A stretch of DNA of 64,000 bases from Macrostomum lignano. Lineage: Eukaryota. The stretch lies in assembly GCA_002269645.1 (NCBI GenBank), contig NIVC01000995.1, forward strand, positions 324,100 to 388,099. Reading direction: 5' to 3'. The notes beneath the pieces are model-generated. The model searched no databases. It saw nothing but the letters and a program-made list of their open reading frames with translations, and had not been told where the DNA came from. Below, piece by piece: positions 7,701 to 64,000 of this stretch (its first letter is position 1; each line of letters begins with the position of its first letter). A program made the position numbers and the translations under genes.

Positions 7701-10700
7701 TTGTGAGAGAGGAATTTTCAGGAAAGAATCGCGAGGGACGAATTGTCAGAGAGGAATTGTCAGAGAGTAATTGTCAGATAGGAATTGTCAGGGAGAATTT
7801 GTCAGAGAGTTTCATGCAATGTTCAACTGTGAAGCAGCTGGAGACTGCAATTGTCTTCATAAAGACACGGTCACACCGACAAACTTTGGTCAGACTTGGA
7901 ATCGGTCAGGTCGAACCCGCCGCACCTGATCATCGGCGGCTACAATGGCACAGTGTCAGCCATTGCCAGCGAGCTGGGCATTCCGTACTATTGCACCAGC
8001 CCGAGCCATCAGAGCCCGCTGCTGATGGACGCAACCTACCTGAATGCCAGCTCGCTGCTGCTCATGAACTCTTACATGGAAGACATGATTGCGGCGGCCC
8101 AGCAGCTCACTAACTCCATCATTCAGCGGCAGGCTTTGATTGTGGTTACCGATGACATCAGTGACAGTGAGTGATAAGTGTTTAACAATCATGAGTGAGA
8201 GTGCTCTGGGTGACAATGTCCTGAGTGACAGTGTCCTGAGTGACAGTGTCTTGAGTGACAGTGTCCTGAGTGACAGTGTCCTGAGTGACAGTGTCCTGAG
8301 TGACAGTGTCCTGAGTGACAGTGTCCTGAGTGACAGTGTCCTGAGTGACAGTGTCCTGAGTGACAGTGTCCTGAGTGACAGTGTCCTGAGTGACAGTGTC
8401 CTGAGTGACAGTGTCCTGAGTGACAGTGTCCTGAGTGACAGTGTCCTGAGTGACAGTGTTCTGAGTGACAGTGTCCTGAGTGACAGTGTCCTGAGTGACA
8501 GTGTCCTGAGTGACAGTGTCCTGAGTGACAGTGTCCTGAGTGACAGTGTCCTGAGTGACAGTGTCCTGAGTGACAGTGTCCTGAGTGACAGTGTCTGAGT
8601 GACAGTGTCCTGAGTGACAGTGTCCTGAGTGACAGTGTCCTGAGTGACAGTGTCCTGAGGGACAGTGTCCTGAGTGACAGTGTCCTGAGTGACAGTGTCC
8701 TGAGTGACAGTGTCCTGAGTGACAGTGTCCTGAGTGACAGTGTCCTGAGGGACAGTGTCCTGAGTGACAGTGTCCTGAGTGACAGTGTTCTGAGTGACAG
8801 TGTCCTGAGTGACAGTGTCCTGAGTGACAGTGTCCTGAGTGACAGTGTCCTGAGTGACAGTGTCCTGAGTGACAGTGTCCTGAGTGACAGTGTTCTGAGT
8901 GACAGTGTCCTGAGTGACAGTGTTCTGAGTGACAGTGTCCTGTGTGAGTGTGGTGATTATGCATAACTATTCAGAGTTTATGATTAATTGTGCCAATTTG
9001 CAATGGTTCCAGGCGTGAATTTCCTGCTGAACTCGCTGTCCGACCAGGCCCTGCACATGGTACTTCTGAACGGTTCTATTCGCGATTCGCTGTACAATGC
9101 CAGTCTTAAATTCAACATTAGCTCGGCAGTGTTCCAGACAATGTTCACGTCCGACCTCATGCTCGAGGCCCTACTGCCTGAAGTGAGCGGCACTCTGGTT
9201 ACAACGCGGGGTGTTGAATAGCAAAGAATAACAATACGTATCGTTAGTGAATCAAATTATTAAATAATAACTAGTCACAATCACACACCACTTCTTCAGG
9301 CTGCCCGGCTGAGTCTAATGAAAAATGTATCGTTCTGGATCATCACAGACTTGGTGAGTGACTATGAGATGTGCTCAGTCTCTAACCCAAGCCCCCGTCT
9401 TAAATAGAAAGTAATTCCTCTGTCTTAAGTCATGACAATGATCTTCATTGTGTTGCTGTGTTCTGTTGTCGCTGAAAAAGCAATCAAATTAAGTCGCCAC
9501 TCCGCTCCCGCAGTTTCCCAACAGCAGTCAGCTGCTGGCGTACCGCAGAACGGGCTGCACAATGTTCTCCTTTGCGCTGCAGTCTGCAGCGTCCAATGTG
9601 ACGAGTCCTGATGCCCTGACGCTGGCGATGGCGCAGGACGCAATTAATCACTACCTGAAGGTGGTCGATGGTGGCCGTTTGTCATTCGATCTGTCGAGAG
9701 CGCTATTGGTAAACAAATAACTGTACAATCTCTGAATTCCTGTTTATTTAATTGGTTCCAACGCTTGTAAACGCATAAAAGCAATAAATATCCAACTCAG
9801 ACAAGCTACAATGGAATACTGGGCCAACTGCACTTTAGTTCCGGCACCAGACGGAATTTGTACAGCCAGCTCAATACAATGATGACGTCATACAGGCTTC
9901 CCTACTTGGAAGAGGTGATGCATGAGGCTTGTGTTGTGATTTGCGATTCTGGCTTCTGATCTTTAGCTCCTCTGCTGGTTTCACAACCAAGCCACCAGAT
10001 CCCCAACCAAGCCACCAGATCCCCAACCAAGCCACCAGATCCCCAACCCAGCCACCAGATCCCCAACCCAGCCACCAGATCCCCAACCAAGCCACCAGAT
10101 CCCCAACCAAGCTACCAGATCCCCAACCCAGCCACCAGATCCCCAACCAAGCCACCAGATCCCCAACCAAGCCACCAGATCCCCAACCCAGCCACCAGAT
10201 CCCCAACCAAGCCACCAGATCCCCAACCCAGCCACCAGATCCCCAACCAAGCCACCAGATCCCCAACCCAGCCACCAGATCCCCAACCAAGCCACTAGAT
10301 CCCCAACCAAGCCACTAGATCCCCAACCCAGCCACCAGATCCCCAACCAAGCCACCAGATCCCCAACTAAGCAACCAGATCCCCAACCAAGCCACCAGAT
10401 CCCCAACCAGCCACCAGATCCCCAACCAAGCCACCAGATCCCCAACCAAGCCACCAGATCCCCAACCAAGCCACCAGATCCCCAACCAAGCCACCAGATC
10501 CCCAACCAAGCCACCAGATCCCCAACCAAGCCACCAGATCCCCAACCAAGCCACCAGATCCCCAACCAAGCCACCAGATCCCCAACCAAGCCACCAGATC
10601 CCCAACTAAGCAACCAGATCCCCAACCAAGCCACCAGATACCCAACCAAGCCACCAGATCCCCAACTAAGCAACCAGATCCCCAACCAAGCCACCAGATC

Positions 10701-53409: not shown

Positions 53410-54273
53410 TGATGTGTTCCTTATTACCCGACTTTCGATAATCAAGGAACAATCACTTCTAGCTCAACAGCTAGGCAACCCAGTAAGTCAAACGAAGGTA
53501 TTCAATTACCTTTAATCCGGATTTGAATTTCTTGAGTAGTTCTCGCTAGGAACTTGTCAGTAGATCTCGTAGATCAGGCGCCTTGATTCTTCAGTTGCTC
53601 TGGTCCTGGTTCCTCTTGTACTTCCGATAAGTTCTTCCGGCCGGTATCTTCCGTCAGGACCAATCAGAGGCCTCGTAGCAACAATGGGTACCCTGCGCCA
53701 AACTGCGGTCTAAATTAAGCCTCCTTCTTCTAGCAGTGCCTCTATGCACTCTAGGTATAGCTCCGGAAACCACTGATAGTCCTCTAAGATCTATCAGGGG
53801 CAGTCCTTCTGGAGACTGCAACCAATGGAGTCTAAACAGACTCAAGAGTCTCAACAGACTCAATTAGACTCAAGTCTCAATAGACTTGAGCGAGACGTCT
53901 CTAACACAACGGGCGCAAATAAGGAAGGCTTACCGCAACAACTCGACCGAGTCTCGATTGACTTGGTAGATCAGGAAGTCCTCCTAAGGCTTCCTCTTCG
54001 GAGCGCTCCTCTTCCGTGGGGAGAATGGCTCCGGTACCGCTTCAGATCGCTTGTATTTATAGACAAGTTTTTGATCCAAAATAGTATCATGACAATTCAC
54101 GTGTTGCGCTAAAAGGGGAAAATGGCTCATGGCGTATTATTCTGGTAACATCTTTTTCTGGTAGCGTGATTCATTCAAAGCTTAGGCGCACATGCGTGTA
54201 CTTACTTACTTATAGTAGTATTATACGATTATCTTCTTTTTTCCTTTTTTAACGGGAGGTAGAACACTCTACA
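53410..54273 (-). repeat. 3' LTR (864 bp)
   Basis: Matches 63138-64000 by eye except for a 1-nt indel in a T-run. Starts TGTAGAGTGTTC and ends GAACACATCA on the - strand; TATAAA lies at 54056-61 (-). Confidence 0.9.
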
Positions 54274-54277
54274 AAAT

Positions 54278-54288
54278 CTCCCTTTTTT
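54278..54288 (-). other. Polypurine tract candidate
   Basis: AAAAAAGGGAG, 4 nt upstream of the inferred 3' LTR start TGTAGAG. Confidence 0.6.
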
Positions 54289-54453
54289 ACGAAAAAACTC
54301 GTCCCGAGTTTTAACAATAAAATTCTGTGGTGATCAGTTAATATAGGAAATAAACAATTGATTTTGTGCGCGTCTAGTGAAGCGAGGGTTTGGTCAAAAC
54401 TCTAAAAACTTTTCAGTACATATTGCGGTCAAAACTCGAATATCGCGTAGACA

Positions 54454-54828
54454 TCAAGTGGCATCAGGTTTGATCCGACACCACTTTCGAAACGTGCAGT
54501 CTCGCGGCATACTATTACATAAGGGGCATCCTATAACGCCCCTACTAGCGGTTTGCTTCAAACAGTGCATGCAAATAAAATGTTGGTGGTTACAATATTG
54601 AAACGTGCGCCAAGAATAACAATAGGCACATTGTCGCAAACTATCTCTACAGAGGGGACAATTCTGCCATGGCTGAATATAATGTGAATCGCTTAAACAT
54701 TGTCCGCAAACTTTATGTTCGTTGATGCAAATAGTCGGTGGCTTGACAGCCAAGTCATCAGTTAAACATATCGGGCAGTCATATAGCTGCTGAGGCTGGG
54801 GCGCCTGTTTTGACAGTGCGTTGCCCAT
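54454..54828 (-). CDS. Retroelement accessory protein: N-myristoylation motif plus two RING fingers (124 aa)
   Basis: The first ATG (54828; A at -3, G at +4) gives MGNALSK; the track's start at 54840 is a TTG. Two C-x2-C...C-x3-H-x2-C-x2-C...C-x2-C motifs follow. Lies between pol stop and PPT. Confidence 0.8.
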   Translation of the reverse strand: MGNALSKQAPQPQQLYDCPICLTDDLAVKPPTICINEHKVCGQCLSDSHYIQPWQNCPLCRDSLRQCAYCYSWRTFQYCNHQHFICMHCLKQTASRGVIGCPLCNSMPRDCTFRKWCRIKPDAT

Positions 54829-54948
54829 AATTGTCGTCAATTTGTCGCTGTCTTTGTGTCGCTCGGATTAGTCGCCTTTTACGACAAGCTTGCGAAGCTG
54901 TAGTGCTATTCTTTATCCCGGTCACTACACGGGGTTGTTCTCTAAACT

Positions 54949-57900
54949 CTAGCGTGGTCGTAGGTTGTAGCCATGTGGCTGGCTCACATCTGTCGTTTGA
55001 GTCTCCTCGTGCTTCGTCGCGATGTGGCGGTTCGTTGAACGCGTGCGATCAGCGTTGTCTAATGTCGGTAGAAACGTCGCTGTGTCAGTGTTGATCTTCT
55101 TTAGTCGATGAATGTGTACGTAGAACTGGTGCTGATGTGGATCTTGTACATTAGCCAGGCGTGCCGTTGTTGGTGACGTTAGTTGGACCACTCGATAGGG
55201 TCCTTTGTACTTCTGTGCATGTTTATGCGTCTGCTGTGGCGGGTAGTGTAGGTAGACGATGTCGCCGGCCGTCAGGGTTGTCGATCTCGCGTCGTTGCCG
55301 GTGGTCAGAGCCACCTGGTTGTCAATGTTGTGCTTGGCGATCTTCCATGCGAGGTGTAGTTGCGTGACGAATTTCTGAATGGAAGTCGGTACTTCCACGT
55401 ACTGCGATGGTAGCAATTGCTGTGCGAGCAGATTCGGCGGTTGGAAGTCTCGTCCAAACATTAGGAAGAATGGCGTATTGTCCGTTGATCGATGAATAGC
55501 GCTGTTGTAGGCCATTGTTACAGATTGCAGGTAGATGATCCAGTCTTCCGGCTGTTGGTGCGCGAAATGTGTAATCATCTCGTGCAGGTTGCGGTGAAAC
55601 CGTTCAACCATGTTTGCCTTCGGATTGTAGGTCGATGTGTAGATCTGCGTAATGTTGAGAATCCTTACGACTTGCTGAAACAGTTGCGATGTAAACTGCG
55701 ATCCGTTGTCCGATGTGAGGTTCTTCGGCGTGCCGTACTTGCAAATGATTTCGTTGAAGAAACTCATTGCCACTGTCTGAGCTGTGATGTCCGGTATCGG
55801 TATGGCGATAGCAAACTTCGAGAAGATATCCAAGGCGGTTAGAATGTAGGTGTAGGCGATGCCCTGGAGACAGCTCGGTGGTAGCGGTCCGGTGATGTCG
55901 ATGCTTAGACAGTCCATTGTAGTCGACTTCGGAATGGACTGTAGCTGCGGTTTCTGTCGTCGTCCTGTCTTTGATGCAGCACATGAATGGCAGTTGTTGC
56001 AATACTGCTTGATGTCGCCGTACATAGTTGGCCAAAAGTAGTATTGTTCCACTCTCGCGATGGTCTTTGCTGCCGACAGGTGTCCAGCGAGTGGGTTGTC
56101 GTGTAGCTCGTTGAGAATTGCTTGCCGAAACGAATATGGTATGTAGATCTTGGGTTTATTGTCGCTCATCCAGTAGAGCCGTGACTTATTGATTGTTAGG
56201 TGTTGTCGTTGCTTGCGTAGGAATTTTCGTTCCATGGGACTGAGTTTGATGTTCTTGTCGTCGTCTTTAACCGCTTGGTAGAAGTTGTCGCGCTCGGTTT
56301 CATCCACCAACTCCTTGATGTTAGGGATTGGATGAATGGCGTTGACTTCATAGGCTCTTGACAGGGCGTCCGCGGCTTTGTTGGTAATTCCTGGTTTGTA
56401 GACGAGTTTGTAGTTGTAATCCTGGATCTTGAGTGTCATTCTGATGAGTCGGTTGTTGGTCTGTCCTTTTGTAGTTACGACGTAGGTCAATGGTGCATGA
56501 TCCGTGCGTACTATCGTCTGTATTGGAGAACCATAGATGTAGTAATGAAACTGTCGCAGGGCGAACAAGACTCCTAGTAGCTCTCGTTCCGTAGCTGACC
56601 ACTTTGTCTCATTTGGTTTGAGTGCTCGACTGACGTAAGCAATAGGTCGTTCCTTCTTGTCCTCGGTTTCCTGTAGTAGGACTGCTCCGAGTCCCGTTCC
56701 TGAGGCGTCTGTCTCGATGATGAAGGGCTTGTCGAAGTCCGGATGCTGTAGCAGTGCGTCTGATGTCAGCTGTCGTTTGATTTCGTCGAAACTTTCCTGT
56801 TGTCTCTGTGTCCAGTTGTCTTGCTTCCATTTGTCGAACTTGAGCAGGTCGTACAGTGGCTTTGCTGTCTTTGCGAAGTTAGGTAAGAACTTCCTGAAGT
56901 ATTGCGCAAGTCCAAGGAATGATTGGACCTTCGTTATACTGGTTGGCGTAGGAAACTTCTTCACCTTTTCCACGTTGTCTGGGTCCGGTGAGATTCCTTT
57001 GGCTGTCACCTGATGTCCCAGGTAACGCACGTTGTCTCGGAAGAATTTGCATTTAGTTGGTTGTAGCTTCAGACCTTGGCGTTGAATGAGCGCTAGGGCC
57101 TTCTCCGTAGCTTCGTAGAGTCGCTCGAAATCCTCTCCGTAAGCTAAAATGTCGTCGACATAGTGCAGCAGGTTCGTGCATCCTGCTAGCATGTATGCTG
57201 TTAGTCGACTCATCGTTGCTGGGCTGTTGCTAAGTCCCATCGGCGATCGATTGTACTCGTATACTTGTCCATTGTAGGTTTTGAAAGCCGTGTACTGTCG
57301 TGACTCTTTCTCGATTTCAATTTGCCAAAATCCATGACGTAGGTCGAACACCGTGAACAATTTTGCCGTGTTGAGCTTTGCTAGTAGTTCGGAGATCTTC
57401 GGTAGGCTTTGCTGATCCGTCGGTATGTACTTGTTCAACAGTCTGAAGTCGCATACGAGTCGTCTTTCGTTTGTCTCCTTCTTCTGTACCAGTAGGCACG
57501 GTGAGGAGTAAGCCGAAATAGCTTTGCTGATGATGCCGTGCTTTAGCATTTTATCGATGATTTCGTCAAAGTGTTGTTGCAGATGCTTGGCGATCGGGTA
57601 CGGCTTGCACTGAATTGGTTCCGTGTGCGGCAGAAGTTTGATTTCCTGTTTGATGTCCTTGGCTCGTCCGATGTCGTAATCATGATGGCAGAAGGCTTCG
57701 TTGTACTTCCACAACAGCTGTCGAACTTTCCTCTTTTGCTGTTCCGTAATCGGGCTGTCATCCAAATTGATCTTCTTTTGAAATTCTTCCTCTGTTAGTC
57801 GTGGAGTCGCTTGTTCAATCAGCATAACCGATGCTTGGGTGTTGAGATGACCGATGCACATTCCTTGTCGTAGATGAACCGTTTCTGTGTTCGGGTTGAA

Positions 57901-60648
57901 GATTTGTACTGGCAGTTGCTTATCCTTTGCAACCAGCACTAGTGCCGTAGGCATCATGATTTGATGTTTTGCCGTGACTCTCCTGTGTGGATCAAATATC
58001 ATTGCTTCATCTGCCGCGCTGGTCGTTTTCGCTCTGACCCAGCATGCGCTTTCAGGCTGGATAATGACATCTTGCTGCAGAGTTACTTTCGGTAGTACTC
58101 GAATCTGGTTGATCAGCGGTTGCTCCACCGTGTCGATCCTAAACGTTTGCTTGTTGAAGTCGAAGGTCAATGGTAGTTGAAGCTGCTTGAACGTGTCGAT
58201 TCCAACGATGACGTCTTGGTTTGGTAGTCTGTCGATGATGTACGTCGGGACCGTCAGCTGTTTATTAGCAATTTTCAAGTCGATATCTGCTTTTCCTAGG
58301 ATGTTGAGTGAATGTCCTCCTGCTCCTGCAACTGCGATTGCTGCTGGTCGTACCGCGAGTCGTAGCTTGTTGCATAATTGTTGCGAGATGACTGTGATCG
58401 AGCTGCCTGAATCCAGTAGTGCTCGACATGGCAAGTTGTTGACAATGACCTGAGCCATTGCTTTGCCAATCTCGGCGTGTAGCGTACAGACGTAGTTTTC
58501 CGGCCATTTTGGCTCGTGCTGTTCTGCTTGATAGTTGGGTGGTTGTATCCTTGGTGCCGTTGGTGTTGTCGGAATCGATGGATATAGCCGCGTTGCTAGT
58601 GTCGGTTGCCCTTGAACCTCACAATGTGCAGTTTCTGTTAGTTCTAAACTGTTGTCGCTTTCCGTTGTCGTTCTTTGCATTATGGCATTCACTGTCTTCT
58701 TAGCTCTTGGACAAGTTTGACTGAAGCACCGTACGATCGATGAAATGATGAAGATTGCCGTGACAATCCACACAATGCAAGCACCGTAGAAGATGAATCC
58801 TTGATAGAGACTGCCTCTTCCATTGAGCAGCTCCCAGAAGCTATTTGTCCAAAATGATTTGATGGCGCTGTCCATTGAAACAAGGACGGGAAATCTTCCT
58901 GTCCCGGTTCCTTTGTCCTTTCTTGTGAACAGCTGGTGAATCATCTTGCGTTGGGTGATGAACGCTTGCAAGAAGTCGTTGATCGTCCATCCTGGTGTTA
59001 TCTCGTCAAGTTGGATATCGGCGAATGGCGTATACTTCGTTCTGTTGAATCGGATTTTCAAATCCTCCATGTCGTAGTTTTCGTCGACGATTACTTCCGG
59101 TTCTGTGACGTTTGCTGTCGTTCCAGTTGTTTTGATGACGTGTAGTGCATTGTCCAGTTGATAGTAGTTTACTGCCGTGGTGCAAGGTCTCGGTATTGCG
59201 GTGCCAACGATGATGTTGTGTACCGTGTCCAAGAATCCCTGAATTCGTTTTCCTTCGTAGAACGCTTCAATCCTTGGCTTATCGTAGCAGGTTGTTGACG
59301 TGTTTGACGGCAAGATGTTAAAGTGCTGTATCGGCGTGCACTTGTATATCAACAGATGCTCGTATATTGGAACTGCCAAAACGTTCGTCATTCCGGTGAT
59401 TTTACGAAAAGTCATCGTAGGGTTGACATAGTAGTTTTGTCTGGCATAATTTAAGTTGATTGCGTGCATTTTGCAAGTTAGCTGGACCAGTGTTCGATGC
59501 AAGTGGTTTAACTGGTTGTGTAGATTGTGATCCAAAGCCGTTATCTTTGCTGACAACAGCCGGTTTGACACCAGTTTGGGACGTTCGATGTCACGTCGTC
59601 TTCTATTCTGTTTTTCTTGTTGCTGATACGTTCCATTGATGATTGCCAAGAAGGTTTGTTTGTCTTCATCCTTTACGTAGACTGGTATCTCTTGTTCCGA
59701 GATGAATAGTGTCTTGTCTGTATCCTTGCATTTCAGTTTTTGCTCGACTGGTTTCTTTTGAAACGTCAGTGCCAAGTCTCCTGACTTTGCCAAAAACGTA
59801 TTTGACAGTAGTCCTCCTTCAACTGTGTGATACTTTTGAAGCTTGCAGTCAATTTCCGGCTCAACTTCCCACGCGAAGAAGTATTGTCGTGATTTGTACG
59901 GTTCCTCATAGTGTGATTGTGCTCTGTGCTCAATCTGCCATCGATAGTCTTGATGATATGTTGGACTCAGTGGTAGACTGTGTAGTTCTTCCTTCCGTAG
60001 AATCGGCGTTGGACACCATCCTTCACTGTATCGACATTCGCTTAGTTGCAGCTGTAACGATTCCATTTTCTCGTACGGATTGTAGTAGAATGGAATATTT
60101 CTGATCAAGTAGCTGTTGCGTGCCATATATTCTTTCCATTTTCCGAAGAAGTGAATATATCGACCGTTGGCTGAATTCTTTGTTCTGAACAGCTGTGCGT
60201 TGCCGACCTTCTCATCTGGTTCCAGTTCACCATCCTTTGAAAATAGTGTTTGATTCCATTGTAGGCATTCCGCGTGCGACACATGTAGCTCATGTTGTTT
60301 AAATCGGATCCGGTTCCATTGTCCGCGCCAAACTTTTTCCACCAGGTGCTTGTCTCTGAAGCATACTATCCCGTGTTGTCGATGCTTCTTGATGTTAGCC
60401 TTGTAGAGATCGAGTGTAATCTTCTTTGGTTTTGTCTGGTTTGTCTTGAAGTAACTGCATTTGATGTCGGTTGGTATCTTGTAGATCATCGGTTGGATAT
60501 GCGCATCCGTTGGACAAATCATTGGCTTTTCCGTTGCCGTTGCTTTGGCGACTACTGCTATCAGTAGTATCACGATGATCCAGAATAGCCAGTTTTTCCA
60601 CTTCTTGGATTTTGCCGTTGTCCTTGCTGCATTGGCTGCGATCGCCAT
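54949..60648 (-). CDS. Env-Pol polyprotein (signal peptide, class III-like glycoprotein, TM, protease, RT, RNase H, integrase), 1899 aa
   Basis: Uninterrupted ORF. Signal peptide WLFWIIVILLIAVVAKA; furin RRRR|D aa349-352; TM aa617-639; LLDSGS aa744-749; YVDD aa1163; DAS...ERE...DH RNase H; H-H-C-C zinc finger, IDITGP, SDNGSQF, VERFH and GPY integrase motifs; C-terminal YNLRPR. Confidence 0.95.
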   Translation of the reverse strand: MAIAANAARTTAKSKKWKNWLFWIIVILLIAVVAKATATEKPMICPTDAHIQPMIYKIPTDIKCSYFKTNQTKPKKITLDLYKANIKKHRQHGIVCFRDKHLVEKVWRGQWNRIRFKQHELHVSHAECLQWNQTLFSKDGELEPDEKVGNAQLFRTKNSANGRYIHFFGKWKEYMARNSYLIRNIPFYYNPYEKMESLQLQLSECRYSEGWCPTPILRKEELHSLPLSPTYHQDYRWQIEHRAQSHYEEPYKSRQYFFAWEVEPEIDCKLQKYHTVEGGLLSNTFLAKSGDLALTFQKKPVEQKLKCKDTDKTLFISEQEIPVYVKDEDKQTFLAIINGTYQQQEKQNRRRRDIERPKLVSNRLLSAKITALDHNLHNQLNHLHRTLVQLTCKMHAINLNYARQNYYVNPTMTFRKITGMTNVLAVPIYEHLLIYKCTPIQHFNILPSNTSTTCYDKPRIEAFYEGKRIQGFLDTVHNIIVGTAIPRPCTTAVNYYQLDNALHVIKTTGTTANVTEPEVIVDENYDMEDLKIRFNRTKYTPFADIQLDEITPGWTINDFLQAFITQRKMIHQLFTRKDKGTGTGRFPVLVSMDSAIKSFWTNSFWELLNGRGSLYQGFIFYGACIVWIVTAIFIISSIVRCFSQTCPRAKKTVNAIMQRTTTESDNSLELTETAHCEVQGQPTLATRLYPSIPTTPTAPRIQPPNYQAEQHEPKWPENYVCTLHAEIGKAMAQVIVNNLPCRALLDSGSSITVISQQLCNKLRLAVRPAAIAVAGAGGHSLNILGKADIDLKIANKQLTVPTYIIDRLPNQDVIVGIDTFKQLQLPLTFDFNKQTFRIDTVEQPLINQIRVLPKVTLQQDVIIQPESACWVRAKTTSAADEAMIFDPHRRVTAKHQIMMPTALVLVAKDKQLPVQIFNPNTETVHLRQGMCIGHLNTQASVMLIEQATPRLTEEEFQKKINLDDSPITEQQKRKVRQLLWKYNEAFCHHDYDIGRAKDIKQEIKLLPHTEPIQCKPYPIAKHLQQHFDEIIDKMLKHGIISKAISAYSSPCLLVQKKETNERRLVCDFRLLNKYIPTDQQSLPKISELLAKLNTAKLFTVFDLRHGFWQIEIEKESRQYTAFKTYNGQVYEYNRSPMGLSNSPATMSRLTAYMLAGCTNLLHYVDDILAYGEDFERLYEATEKALALIQRQGLKLQPTKCKFFRDNVRYLGHQVTAKGISPDPDNVEKVKKFPTPTSITKVQSFLGLAQYFRKFLPNFAKTAKPLYDLLKFDKWKQDNWTQRQQESFDEIKRQLTSDALLQHPDFDKPFIIETDASGTGLGAVLLQETEDKKERPIAYVSRALKPNETKWSATERELLGVLFALRQFHYYIYGSPIQTIVRTDHAPLTYVVTTKGQTNNRLIRMTLKIQDYNYKLVYKPGITNKAADALSRAYEVNAIHPIPNIKELVDETERDNFYQAVKDDDKNIKLSPMERKFLRKQRQHLTINKSRLYWMSDNKPKIYIPYSFRQAILNELHDNPLAGHLSAAKTIARVEQYYFWPTMYGDIKQYCNNCHSCAASKTGRRQKPQLQSIPKSTTMDCLSIDITGPLPPSCLQGIAYTYILTALDIFSKFAIAIPIPDITAQTVAMSFFNEIICKYGTPKNLTSDNGSQFTSQLFQQVVRILNITQIYTSTYNPKANMVERFHRNLHEMITHFAHQQPEDWIIYLQSVTMAYNSAIHRSTDNTPFFLMFGRDFQPPNLLAQQLLPSQYVEVPTSIQKFVTQLHLAWKIAKHNIDNQVALTTGNDARSTTLTAGDIVYLHYPPQQTHKHAQKYKGPYRVVQLTSPTTARLANVQDPHQHQFYVHIHRLKKINTDTATFLPTLDNADRTRSTNRHIATKHEETQTTDVSQPHGYNLRPR

Positions 60649-61368
60649 TCGTTATCTTCCATGTCCGCATCATATTCTTTCGGTTGTTCCATTGGCTGAT
60701 CCAGGCGGAAGGCTTCTGATTCGCTTTGCTTTTTGGTTATTTCATTATCTTCGTCTGCGGCTTCTTCCGATGTTTCCGTGTTTCACTCCATTGCGTTGTA
60801 TCTTTTCTCTGTCTTGTAGTCGACCGTTTGAATATAGGCTTCACCATTTCGTTTGTATCGGATCTCGTAGCATCGTCGCTGTCGGAACTCGCTTTCTTTT
60901 CACCTGTTCTTTTCCATTTCTTCATCTTTCCATTGTATTTCGTAGCCTTGATCGCTGTCGGAACTTAGATTCTCCGCTCCGGTTCTTCCTGCATTCCTCT
61001 TTCGGCTTGGTAGTCGTTCGTGTCATCACGCACCTCGCAGTCGTGGTCGTTGCCGTAACTTCTACATTCTTCTTCTTCTTTCATTTCTTTGTCTTTCATG
61101 CTCGTTTTGTCGTCATCCACTGTTGTCGATTCATAGTTGTTTTCTTCGCCGGTTTTCATCTTTTCTTCGTTGCCGATGTCGCTCTCCGCCTCCTCCCTTG
61201 TCTTGTGATTTACTTTCTTCCTGTTTTCTCTGCTGTCTCCGGTGGTCTCTTTTAATTTGATCATTTCGTTTCATCGTCTCTTCTGTTTGTCAGTGTTGTC
61301 CTCGTGCGTCGTCTTCTTTTCGATCAGCTGATGTCAAGTTCCGGACTGTGAAGTCCATTTCCAAGTCG

Positions 61369-62427
61369 TCAATTGTGAACACTTGCTTTCTTGCTTTCAT
61401 TTCCGGTGTGAACGTGATGGCATTCGCGTATCGTGGCATTGCTTGCGTCGGCTGTCTTGTGTGTATCTGACGTTGCGTGGCCTGTAGCCATTACTTCTGA
61501 AGCGGCCTTCGTTTCCGAAGCGGCCATCATTTCCGGAGCGGTCATTATTTCCGAAGCGTCTATCATTTCCGAAGCGTCTTTAGCCTGTTGTTGGCGATTT
61601 TGATATTGCTGCCATGGTTTCTGCGGCTTCTGATTGTTGAATATCTGTCGCGGCTTGTCGTATCTTGTTGACCAATGAGGACAATTAATCTGATAATGTC
61701 CTTCTTGTCCGCAGTAGTAACATCTGGCTGAGGCTTGTTCATTTCGTCTTTTTTGTTCGGCGATAGCAGCTGTCTGGTGCTGCATTAACTTGTTTAGTTG
61801 CTGCGTCAGTTTCTGCACTTCATTGTTGCCTGTCGTCATTAATGGGGCACTGGCTTCCCATTGCATTCCGCAACGCAAAAGGTCTTCTTCGGTTTCGATA
61901 TTTTCACGCAAAAGTCTATCCCGAAGTGACGGCTGTGCGTTGTTTATTACGTGCAGGATGAGGTTTTGTTCACGATCCATCAATCGTTGTCTTTCTCTGG
62001 CGGCCAATTCTGCCGCTCCCAGTGGTGGTTGGTCCGCAGCTTGCAGCGGTGGCTGATGCAGTGCCTTAATTATCTGGCGGATATCGTCCACAAAGGCGAG
62101 GAAGGATTCTGTTGCTTGCATCCTTCTGTTATGCAACTTGTGCAGCAGCACTGATCTGTTTGTGCCGCAACGGTTGAAATGCGCGCGCAGTTGAATGATT
62201 AGTGCTGGATAATTTTGCTGTGTTGCCGCATCCAGCTTGCCGTAAATTTCTCGCGCAGTACCTTGGAGAAGAGGTGGCAGCAGCTGTGCCTTCTCTGGAT
62301 TTTGTAGGTTGTATTCCCTACATACCAGGTCAAAATGGTCGACAAATGTGTTAAAATCTTTCTCCATCGAGAAAGTACCGACCGTTTCTTTGATGTCTCT
62401 GTGTACCGTTGGATTGCGCCGCGCCAT
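61369..62427 (-). CDS. gag: Gag (capsid-like domain plus CCHC zinc knuckle)
   Basis: F..F...F..VC....LLPPLLQGTAREIY...L...F capsid-like N-terminus; CYYCGQEGHYQINC knuckle at 61681-61722. The C-terminus may be frameshifted. Confidence 0.9.
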   Translation of the reverse strand: MARRNPTVHRDIKETVGTFSMEKDFNTFVDHFDLVCREYNLQNPEKAQLLPPLLQGTAREIYGKLDAATQQNYPALIIQLRAHFNRCGTNRSVLLHKLHNRRMQATESFLAFVDDIRQIIKALHQPPLQAADQPPLGAAELAARERQRLMDREQNLILHVINNAQPSLRDRLLRENIETEEDLLRCGMQWEASAPLMTTGNNEVQKLTQQLNKLMQHQTAAIAEQKRRNEQASARCYYCGQEGHYQINCPHWSTRYDKPRQIFNNQKPQKPWQQYQNRQQQAKDASEMIDASEIMTAPEMMAASETKAASEVMATGHATSDTHKTADASNATIRECHHVHTGNESKKASVHN

Positions 62428-63117
62428 GTTGTTGATAGGTAGAACGGTAGTTCAAGATCTGGATCGATTTGTAACGGATCGTCCAGTGTGGTGTTTGCCT
62501 CGGAATAAACCTCGACTGTAACGAATTGCCTTGTGGTGTCGATTTGTTATTCGCTGGCCTCGGATGCGGTGTGGCTTGCTGCCACTGGTTGTCCTCAAAT
62601 GAACTTGTTCTGTTCGCTTGCTGATTTCGCACTTATGCGGCGTCCCGCAAAGTGTATCTTCAAGTTGAAGTGGACTTGTCTTCTTGCTTTGCAAAGTCTT
62701 TTTCTCTTCTTTGACTCTCTCTCTTTTGTCAATTAACTCTGCTCTCCACGAAGTTTCAATTAATTTCGGTTTTGTTTTAGTTTTTGTGCCGGCAAAATGT
62801 TTCAGTTATTTTTTGTTTGTTTTGCGTCGACGATTTTTTATTTTGGTTTGTTTTCAGTGTACCGACGAAGTTAATTTCGGTTTTGTTTTAAACTCACACT
62901 TGCTCGAGCTCGTCAAAACAAAATTTAACACGCGTGCTCAAACTGTACTCAAATTTGACAGGTGCTCAAACCTGTACACCAAATTTTACTCGAGTTTCAA
63001 AACGTAACGGACTTAAAAAGTGTTAACTCTAACACGTGCGCGCAAAATTAATGAAGTCGCTCTGTCGTCACTTTACAATAGCTTGGCCAGGCTATTGCTC
63101 AAGGTTTGAGTAGTGCC

Positions 63118-63135
63118 GAGAGGGCGAGATCACCA
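63118..63135 (-). promoter_or_regulatory. Primer-binding-site candidate
   Basis: TGGTGATCTCGCCCTCTC begins 2 nt after the 5' LTR ...CA; cognate tRNA not identified. Confidence 0.5.
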
Positions 63136-63137
63136 AT

Positions 63138-64000
63138 TGATGTGTTCCTTATTACCCGACTTTCGATAATCAAGGAACAATCACTTCTAGCTCAACAGCT
63201 AGGCAACCCAGTAAGTCAAACGAAGGTATTCAATTACCTTTAATCCGGATTTGAATTTCTTGAGTAGTTCTCGCTAGGAACTTGTCAGTAGATCTCGTAG
63301 ATCAGGCGCCTTGATTCTTCAGTTGCTCTGGTCCTGGTTCCTCTTGTACTTCCGATAAGTTCTTCCGGCCGGTATCTTCCGTCAGGACCAATCAGAGGCC
63401 TCGTAGCAACAATGGGTACCCTGCGCCAAACTGCGGTCTAAATTAAGCCTCCTTCTTCTAGCAGTGCCTCTATGCACTCTAGGTATAGCTCCGGAAACCA
63501 CTGATAGTCCTCTAAGATCTATCAGGGGCAGTCCTTCTGGAGACTGCAACCAATGGAGTCTAAACAGACTCAAGAGTCTCAACAGACTCAATTAGACTCA
63601 AGTCTCAATAGACTTGAGCGAGACGTCTCTAACACAACGGGCGCAAATAAGGAAGGCTTACCGCAACAACTCGACCGAGTCTCGATTGACTTGGTAGATC
63701 AGGAAGTCCTCCTAAGGCTTCCTCTTCGGAGCGCTCCTCTTCCGTGGGGAGAATGGCTCCGGTACCGCTTCAGATCGCTTGTATTTATAGACAAGTTTTT
63801 GATCCAAAATAGTATCATGACAATTCACGTGTTGCGCTAAAAGGGGAAAATGGCTCATGGCGTATTATTCTGGTAACATCTTTTTCTGGTAGCGTGATTC
63901 ATTCAAAGCTTAGGCGCACATGCGTGTACTTACTTACTTATAGTAGTATTATACGATTATCTTCTTTTTCCTTTTTTAACGGGAGGTAGAACACTCTACA
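63138..64000 (-). repeat. 5' LTR (863 bp visible; ends at the window edge)
   Basis: Copy of 53410-54273; flanks diverge immediately outside TGATGTG. Confidence 0.9.

Follow-up and report, generated by a model that had tools for sequence, protein, structure and literature searches.

A retroelement at the end of the contig

The DNA analyzed here, called the window, is a stretch of 64,000 nucleotides from Macrostomum lignano (assembly GCA_002269645.1, contig NIVC01000995.1, positions 324,100 to 388,099), in which one long terminal repeat (LTR) element occupies 53410-64000 on the minus strand. The element has paired LTRs, a primer-binding site (PBS) and a polypurine tract, and its Pol has the order protease (PR), reverse transcriptase (RT), RNase H (RH) and integrase (IN), with a YxDD motif, a zinc-binding IN N-terminus and a GPY motif, as in Ty3/gypsy elements. 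The first base of the 5' LTR is the final base of the contig (window 64000). The target-site duplication of this copy is unreadable because of the contig end, and 4-bp duplications were found at two sister insertions.

The coding region was then examined as it is written in the window. A gag frame of 352 aa, which includes the zinc knuckle, lies upstream of one open reading frame (ORF) of 1,899 aa (minus strand, 60648-54949) that has no internal stop. This frame contains a hydrophobic segment at aa 21-39 (60588-60532; transmembrane segment 1, TM1), a Pfam fusion-glycoprotein match at aa 365-520 (E 3.5e-5, below the cut-off), a second hydrophobic segment at aa 617-635 (58800-58744; TM2), a tail of about 105 aa, the protease DSG motif at aa 746, and then the PR, RT, RH and IN domains. 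The original prediction had described an envelope gene fused in frame upstream of pol, and both this fusion and the gag-env-pol order were borne out by the window frame and by sister copies. The joint between TM2 and PR was open in 31 of 39 copies, and a short-read contig covering 58311-59319 showed zero differences and zero gaps, which excluded a masked stop at this junction.

Sister copies encode a single Gag-Env-Pol polyprotein

A genome search with window 58000-61600 gave 63 matches, and 20 loci were analyzed (the window's own and 19 sisters), together with 19 further, more distant copies at 89-94% DNA identity, giving 39 copies in all. The element is multicopy at >98% identity with the order gag-env-pol, as are the gB-type GAG-ENV-POL errantiviruses. 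In 7 of the 19 close sisters, a single frame without stops takes in gag, the zinc knuckle, TM1, Env, TM2, PR and RT, and in three of the 19 more distant copies a single ORF begins with gag and extends through IN, 2,439-2,498 aa long from the first Met. Single ORFs were also present in two of the four copies of a family with 62% Env identity (the 62% family), and 11 of 75 genomic Env matches sit in open frames of more than 2,400 aa. The frame between the zinc knuckle and TM1 was open in 23/39 copies, 63 of the 77 frameshift sites were private to one copy, and the acidic spacer of Gag differed by 177 nt between subfamilies with the frame preserved. Between subfamilies, the ratio of nonsynonymous to synonymous substitution rates (dN/dS) was 0.03 for the capsid, 0.36-0.46 for the acidic spacer, 0.04-0.09 for the ectodomain, 0.10-0.21 for the tail and 0.02-0.05 for Pol, values that are noisy for short segments because the copies are mosaics. 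Of 73 distant relatives of Env, 25 carry a zinc knuckle ahead of Env in the same protein, 24 a protease motif after it, and 14 both; many others are partial, and the relative P0052, labelled Globodera rostochiensis, has the same single-protein layout.

The family encodes a single ORF, for one Gag-TM-Env-TM-Pol polyprotein of about 2,440-2,500 aa, and we regard this as almost certain. The env-pol frame of the window, which had been taken for an independent ORF, corresponds to the C-terminal three quarters of this Gag-Env-Pol ORF. Since the single ORF starts at gag, it requires neither a second mRNA, spliced or subgenomic, nor an internal start of translation, which had seemed likely to be needed.

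A programmed Env-Pol frameshift was considered and rejected, as the tail has no in-frame slippery heptamer. Splicing was also rejected: none of the 15 listed contig joints (of 21) had canonical intron ends on the minus strand, contigs being unable to show absence. Synonymous variation was found in only 9 of 153 codons at 59031-58554 (12 copies, 90-100% subfamilies). This dip is probably the result of recent recombination; a cis-acting RNA element under TM2 and the tail was rejected, because the dip was absent in comparison with the 62% family. A single-base loss between TM2 and the protease, near 58660, is common to four near-identical copies (L018, L019, L038 and L039), which occupy at least three insertion sites; a fifth close copy lacks it, and in a copy of another subfamily a loss lies 4 nt from this place. 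The shared loss may be a recurrent sequencing error or may mark a sub-lineage in which Pol has left the frame, the two being indistinguishable here.

The separate env start of the window copy

The window copy was compared with its sisters. Nineteen deletions of 1-3 nt are private to it; they all fall within 60629-62926 and within the final 3.4 kb of the contig, and 60628-56500 has none. The ATG that opens the 1,899-aa frame, with a TAA two codons upstream, is indeed present in the window letters, but it is not a property of the element: because one private deletion falls between this ATG and TM1, neither the ATG nor the TAA shares the reading frame of env-pol in 18 of 19 sisters; L015, which itself has seven deletions, is the exception. 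Similarly, the proposed signal peptide exists as a hydrophobic segment, but as an internal one, at aa 620-638 of the longer polyprotein. Short-read contigs from four of four runs (four studies) disagreed with the window at all 12 places listed in 60628-61342, with the whole or almost the whole read depth behind each difference, and single read contigs covered 60487-62200 with 18 gaps relative to the window; these differences are those among the matches listed.

The breaks in the window copy are very probably assembly errors near the contig end. This reading is favoured because the deletions cluster at the contig end, the LTRs are near-identical and the losses lean to homopolymers (10 of 15 single-base losses lie in homopolymer runs, against a background of 44%). 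The separate env start is most likely a sequencing error. It is improbable that the window insertion has truly decayed, with the 19 deletions in the genome and an anatomy otherwise like that of its sisters. A variant of one copy among many would be invisible to read contigs, and the window also differs from copy L003 by 16 substitutions in the deletion-bearing stretch. However, its LTRs are 99.88% identical and only 3 substitutions separate it from L003 across env-RT, yet the deletions crowd the final 3.4 kb, and the homopolymer bias likewise speaks against decay. Still less probable is an independent env-pol ORF translated from a start codon of its own, on an RNA that is spliced or subgenomic, or, in a weaker form, a minor Env-Pol product from an in-frame Met 14 residues before TM1. 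The window frame shows an ATG, an upstream TAA and a signal-like segment, and the in-frame Met precedes TM1 in all four natural copies aligned (90-100% subfamilies). However, the own-start model was rejected on the frame comparison with the sisters, the Met is missing from L040 and L041, and the 177-nt spacer difference between subfamilies leaves the frame intact.

The envelope is a gB-type fusogen

The Env ectodomain was investigated by profile search and by structure prediction. An Env profile built from 48 relatives was searched against the PDB, and all 45 matches were to herpesvirus gB (best E 5.3e-18). An AlphaFold model of the ectodomain made with an alignment had a predicted local distance difference test (pLDDT) score of 78 and a predicted template modelling (pTM) score of 0.52. 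This model matched gB of herpes simplex virus (HSV) with E 1.5e-22 and a template modelling score of about 0.5, and among viral models the top match was a Nyavirus glycoprotein (E 1.1e-24). The predicted fold is gB-like and class III, as in HSV gB and the gB-type GAG-ENV-POL errantiviruses, and on this modelling Env is a gB-type class III fusogen. The ectodomain dN/dS is close to that of Pol, and in the 62% family the Env identity is retained where about half of the shared residues use a different codon.

Predicted topology of the polyprotein

We analyzed the charges that flank the two hydrophobic segments. TM1 has 6 K/R upstream, on the Gag side, against 2 downstream, and the 20 aa that follow TM2, on the Pol side, contain 4 K/R and zero D/E. 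Because K/R lie on the Gag side of TM1 and on the Pol side of TM2, the positive-inside rule predicts the order cytosol-lumen-cytosol, and a two-pass topology is highly probable. TM1 ends in A-x-A, which is a putative signal-peptidase site, so that a cut after TM1 is reasonably likely; a hydrophobic segment at the position of TM1 is also present in the 62% family. The earlier proposal of a type I topology with PR-RT-IN on the cytosolic face is consistent with these charges, while its proposal that Pol is packaged through Env would hold on condition that TM1 is cut. Cleavage there by signal peptidase would leave Pol carried by Env and not by Gag.

Late-domain-type motifs on the Env tail

The tail between TM2 and the protease contains LYPSI, PTAP and PPNY within 19 residues, and these are the sole motifs of this type in the 1,899-aa frame. 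PTAP, YPXL and PPXY are retroviral late domains, usually found on Gag, and bind TSG101, ALIX and NEDD4 ligases according to the accessible text of PMC8952333. The 19-aa stretch was unchanged in 39/39 copies, and all three motifs occurred by chance in a fraction of 4.5e-5 of tail shuffles. The window thus has late motifs that are conserved beyond chance on an arm predicted to be cytosolic, its Y motif ending in I and not in L. In the 62% family, YPxI was found in 3/3 tails and PTAP in 2/3.

The tails of distant relatives were also examined. Motif density was 16 in 2,083 tail residues, compared with 10 in 30,481 other residues. A set of 20 tails was used, from which P0001 (a gene model without the stretch), P0002 (the window's family) and L041 (near L040) were excluded, and 11 of them had a motif against 1.3 expected. 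When the window, L040, L043 and P0005, which have the same flatworm label, were additionally excluded, 7 of the remaining 16 tails had a motif against 0.93 under the null, a result reached in 0 of 5,000 shuffles. PTAP/PSAP and PPxY alone were found in 4 of these 16 distant tails (null 0.44, P 0.0006). In contrast, the generic YxxPhi motif was not enriched (9/16 tails, 7.6 expected).

Two further comparisons were made. The relative P0078, found via Pol and not via Env, has a zinc knuckle, two hydrophobic segments, and PSAP and PPxY before the protease. As a control in the same genome, protease families (60 loci) were examined: none of the six families without a TM-like segment carried a motif in the protease frame, and the one family with a TM had two. 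In L040 and L041, PPPY lies on the Gag side just before TM1 while the tail has no PPxY, which would fit a motif that is free to occupy either of the two cytosolic arms.

A proposed route of assembly

The element is likely a young, multicopy Ty3/gypsy errantivirus of the gB type with the anatomy Gag-TM1-Env-TM2-tail-Pol and the topology described above. For such an element, translation would start at the gag ATG of the genomic RNA and Gag would remain cytosolic. TM1 would act as an internal signal that directs the ectodomain into the lumen of the endoplasmic reticulum, and TM2 would halt transfer, leaving the tail, PR, RT and IN in the cytosol. Cleavage would probably occur after TM1, by signal peptidase, and at RRRR, by a furin-type protease. 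The cut after TM1 would give equimolar Gag-TM1 and Env-tail-Pol, both anchored in the same membrane, and Pol would be brought into the particle by the tail of Env. Through the LYPSI/PTAP/PPNY cluster, ALIX, TSG101 and NEDD4-type ligases may be recruited for budding, and the protease of the element would liberate capsid, RT and IN. We consider the chances about even that the tail motifs act in budding. Only tentatively do we extend this to Gag-Env-Pol polyprotein elements in general, in which the budding signals may lie on the cytosolic Env tail that also bears the polymerase, so that after one signal-peptidase cut a single molecule would combine the motifs for endosomal sorting complexes required for transport (ESCRT), the fusogen and PR-RT-IN.

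Several observations weigh against this interpretation. Nine of the 16 distant tails are motif-free, the P0052 tail as delimited included. The motif set was chosen after the window tail had been seen, its YPx[LI] form is more permissive than the standard YPXL, and the tails are related to one another. P0078 has no Pfam fusion match, and the env-less control is small, with short open frames in two of its six families. The end of TM1 in the 62% family is proline-rich and less typical of a signal-peptidase site, and Env and Pol equimolar with Gag are hard to fit into a capsid. Broken copies are common (16/39 between the zinc knuckle and TM1, 8/39 between TM2 and PR), and because most assembled copies are broken somewhere, intactness rests on a minority of copies and on read contigs, which pool all copies, lose rare variants and cannot single out the window insertion. 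The particle, the protein and the processing steps are proposals drawn from the sequence.

The same tail motifs could instead be sorting or turnover signals that direct Env-Pol into endosomes or mark it for degradation via ubiquitin and so lower the equimolar excess of Env and Pol. This is possible but rather unlikely. YPSI also matches YxxPhi, the stoichiometry problem of the polyprotein needs some such answer, and over half of the distant tails are motif-free; PPxY binds NEDD4-type ligases (accessible text of PMC8952333). However, P[TS]AP and PPxY are enriched and generic YxxPhi is not, and three motif classes lie within 19 aa, as in retroviral late regions. It is hardly credible that Env is a passenger, with replication intracellular and the ectodomain kept merely as an in-frame spacer. 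The element is known here from its sequence, which would suit a passenger, but the low ectodomain dN/dS, the full gB-like fold and the 62% identity maintained across changed codons argue against one.

Other features of the element and its surroundings

The features of the element are listed in Table 1.

Table 1. Features of the LTR element in window coordinates (KD, Kyte-Doolittle hydropathy)
Feature	Position	Strand	Remarks
5' LTR (TG...CA)	63138..64000	minus	99.88% identity to 3' LTR over 864 nt
Primer-binding site (PBS)	63124..63135	minus	TGG-starting 12-mer, 2 nt past the LTR
gag: capsid-like region and CCHC zinc knuckle	61369..62427	minus	Pfam zf-CCHC at aa 236-251; frame stops early only in the window copy
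Acidic spacer of Gag	60592..61368	minus	Fragmented by private deletions in the window copy; contains the spurious TAA and ATG
TM1, predicted internal signal/anchor	60532..60591	minus	KD 2.41; basic flank toward Gag
gB-type (class III) fusogen ectodomain	58801..60531	minus	Profile search, fold match, dN/dS
RRRR furin-type site	59604-59593, aa 349	minus	Inside the ectodomain
TM2, predicted Env stop-transfer anchor	58732..58800	minus	KD 2.43
Cytosolic tail, in-frame Env-protease joint	58453..58731	minus	Open in 31/39 copies; dN/dS 0.10-0.21; gapless short-read contig
Late-domain-type motif cluster	58531..58587	minus	LYPSI (58587), PTAP (58563), PPNY (58542)
pol: PR, RT, RNase H, integrase with GPY motif	54949..58452	minus	DSG 58413-58405; YVDD 57162
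124-aa Cys/His-rich double RING-like ORF	54454..54828	minus	Starts MGNALS; Pfam zf-RING_2 E 0.003
Polypurine tract	54277..54288	minus	Purine run terminating 3 nt before the 3' LTR
3' LTR	53410..54273	minus	Paired with the 5' LTR

In one natural sister copy the acidic spacer contains 28-35% D+E. An imperfect 18-nt repeat of about five 6-residue units lies past the zinc knuckle, at 61487-61582. Of 7 sister copies examined, 6 retain the double RING-like ORF downstream of pol, and its start, MGNALS, fits MGxxxS, which we take to be an N-myristoylation-type start. A myristoylated RING protein recalls arenavirus Z; in the Atlas comparison, large-DNA-virus RING proteins and Z stood at 0.87, which is a lead only. 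In the 62% family (L040-L043, about 8200-9900), two tandem RING-like ORFs follow pol, of 210-266 aa from stop to stop and without an MG start.

Outside the element, window 1-50000 is a dense minisatellite mosaic with periods of 8-44 nt, and the ORFs there mostly overlap these arrays. ARAGORN found no tRNA genes in the window. Some read contigs fuse an LTR end to the element interior (59772 / 63138 and 53466 / 63138), which suggests copies inserted into copies. On contig C2447, the 3' flank is that of the window element but the insertion is a tandem of two copies of another subfamily with a common middle LTR, and C4160 shares the 5' flank of C2447; the locus may have been assembled several times as haplotypes.

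Relation to known elements

The element and its gene order are already known. The searchable text of Chary and Hayashi (2026, PMC13524379) describes gB-type GAG-ENV-POL elements in Nematoda, Bryozoa and Platyhelminthes that are not monophyletic, classes all catalogued elements as Ty3/gypsy, and notes that some gB ectodomains are flanked by two TM domains; gene order, gB-type Env and Ty3/gypsy Pol are the same in the window element. Row 1445 of its Supplementary file 1 is a rhabditophoran flatworm element with 16 copies and LTR offsets 0-863 and 9727-10591; the window element has the same LTR offsets and the same PBS 12-mer at the same offset (PMC13524379). It is not among the five Rhabditophora rows of Supplementary file 4, and the searchable text of that paper does not speak of a polyprotein, a single ORF, fused genes, late domains, ESCRT, budding or RING (PMC13524379).

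In its searchable text, PMC13524379 also cites Sacco et al. 2022 for a flipped env-pol order in a nematode metavirus. In our midpoint-rooted RT tree (21 rows, one of them nematode-labelled), the window element fell outside the clade that contains the Globodera protein. The nematode endogenous retroviruses (NERV) reportedly have a continuous gag-env-pro-pol ORF, a Nyamiviridae-like Env and small extra ORFs. The window family likewise has a continuous gag-env-pro-pol ORF, and the best viral fold match here was a Nyavirus glycoprotein. However, the host phylum differs, the nearest named protein (P0002) is flatworm-labelled, and neither a nematode host nor RT monophyly was found, so the window element works like NERV but is not filed as one. 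Its position in the RT tree is in line with the non-monophyly stated in the searchable text of PMC13524379.

According to the accessible text of PMC9094657, Atlas virus and other Belpaoviridae likewise have three genes in one ORF and an Env freed from the polyprotein; unlike the window family, Atlas virus is of the BEL/Pao lineage and has a single Gag-Pol-Env with Env last, a class II fusogen, and Pol that remains attached to Gag. Foamy viruses are comparable in the N-terminal membrane-spanning leader of their Env precursor and in Env-dependent budding, as far as described in the accessible text of PMC3705266. They differ from the window element in belonging to Retroviridae and in having separate genes, late domains on Gag and an unrelated fusogen. 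A further similarity is that foamy virus Pol is not known to be made as Gag-Pol. The structural polyproteins of flaviviruses and alphaviruses also proceed from a capsid through an internal signal to a lumenal glycoprotein and back to the cytosol. The working is similar without homology, and in the window element it is a retroelement Pol that follows on the cytosolic side.

Implications

The free-standing env-pol ORF being very probably an assembly artefact, catalogues built on the window copy call for caution. Taken together, the tail motifs and the anatomy, corrected to a single polyprotein, form a specific, testable model of assembly, in which the tail motifs are the new lead. An earlier description of late motifs on such tails was not found in the literature searched, which did not extend to subscription journals; of the papers returned for the single polyprotein or the tail motifs, PMC13524379 alone concerned the element. 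The tail cluster offers a first concrete, testable idea of how Pol packaging and budding are achieved in polyprotein elements. If the tentative general model is true, a particle could bud off only at sites that contain both the fusogen and the enzymes, unlike the Gag-driven budding of retroviruses. It would also suggest one of two origins: either env was inserted in frame at the junction of Gag and protease, with the nucleocapsid on one side and a p6-like peptide on the other, or late motifs arose on such tails more than once. The path from retrotransposon to enveloped particle would then differ from the retroviral one. The family itself presents a clean single-polyprotein design, in active-looking, near-identical copies in a free-living flatworm.

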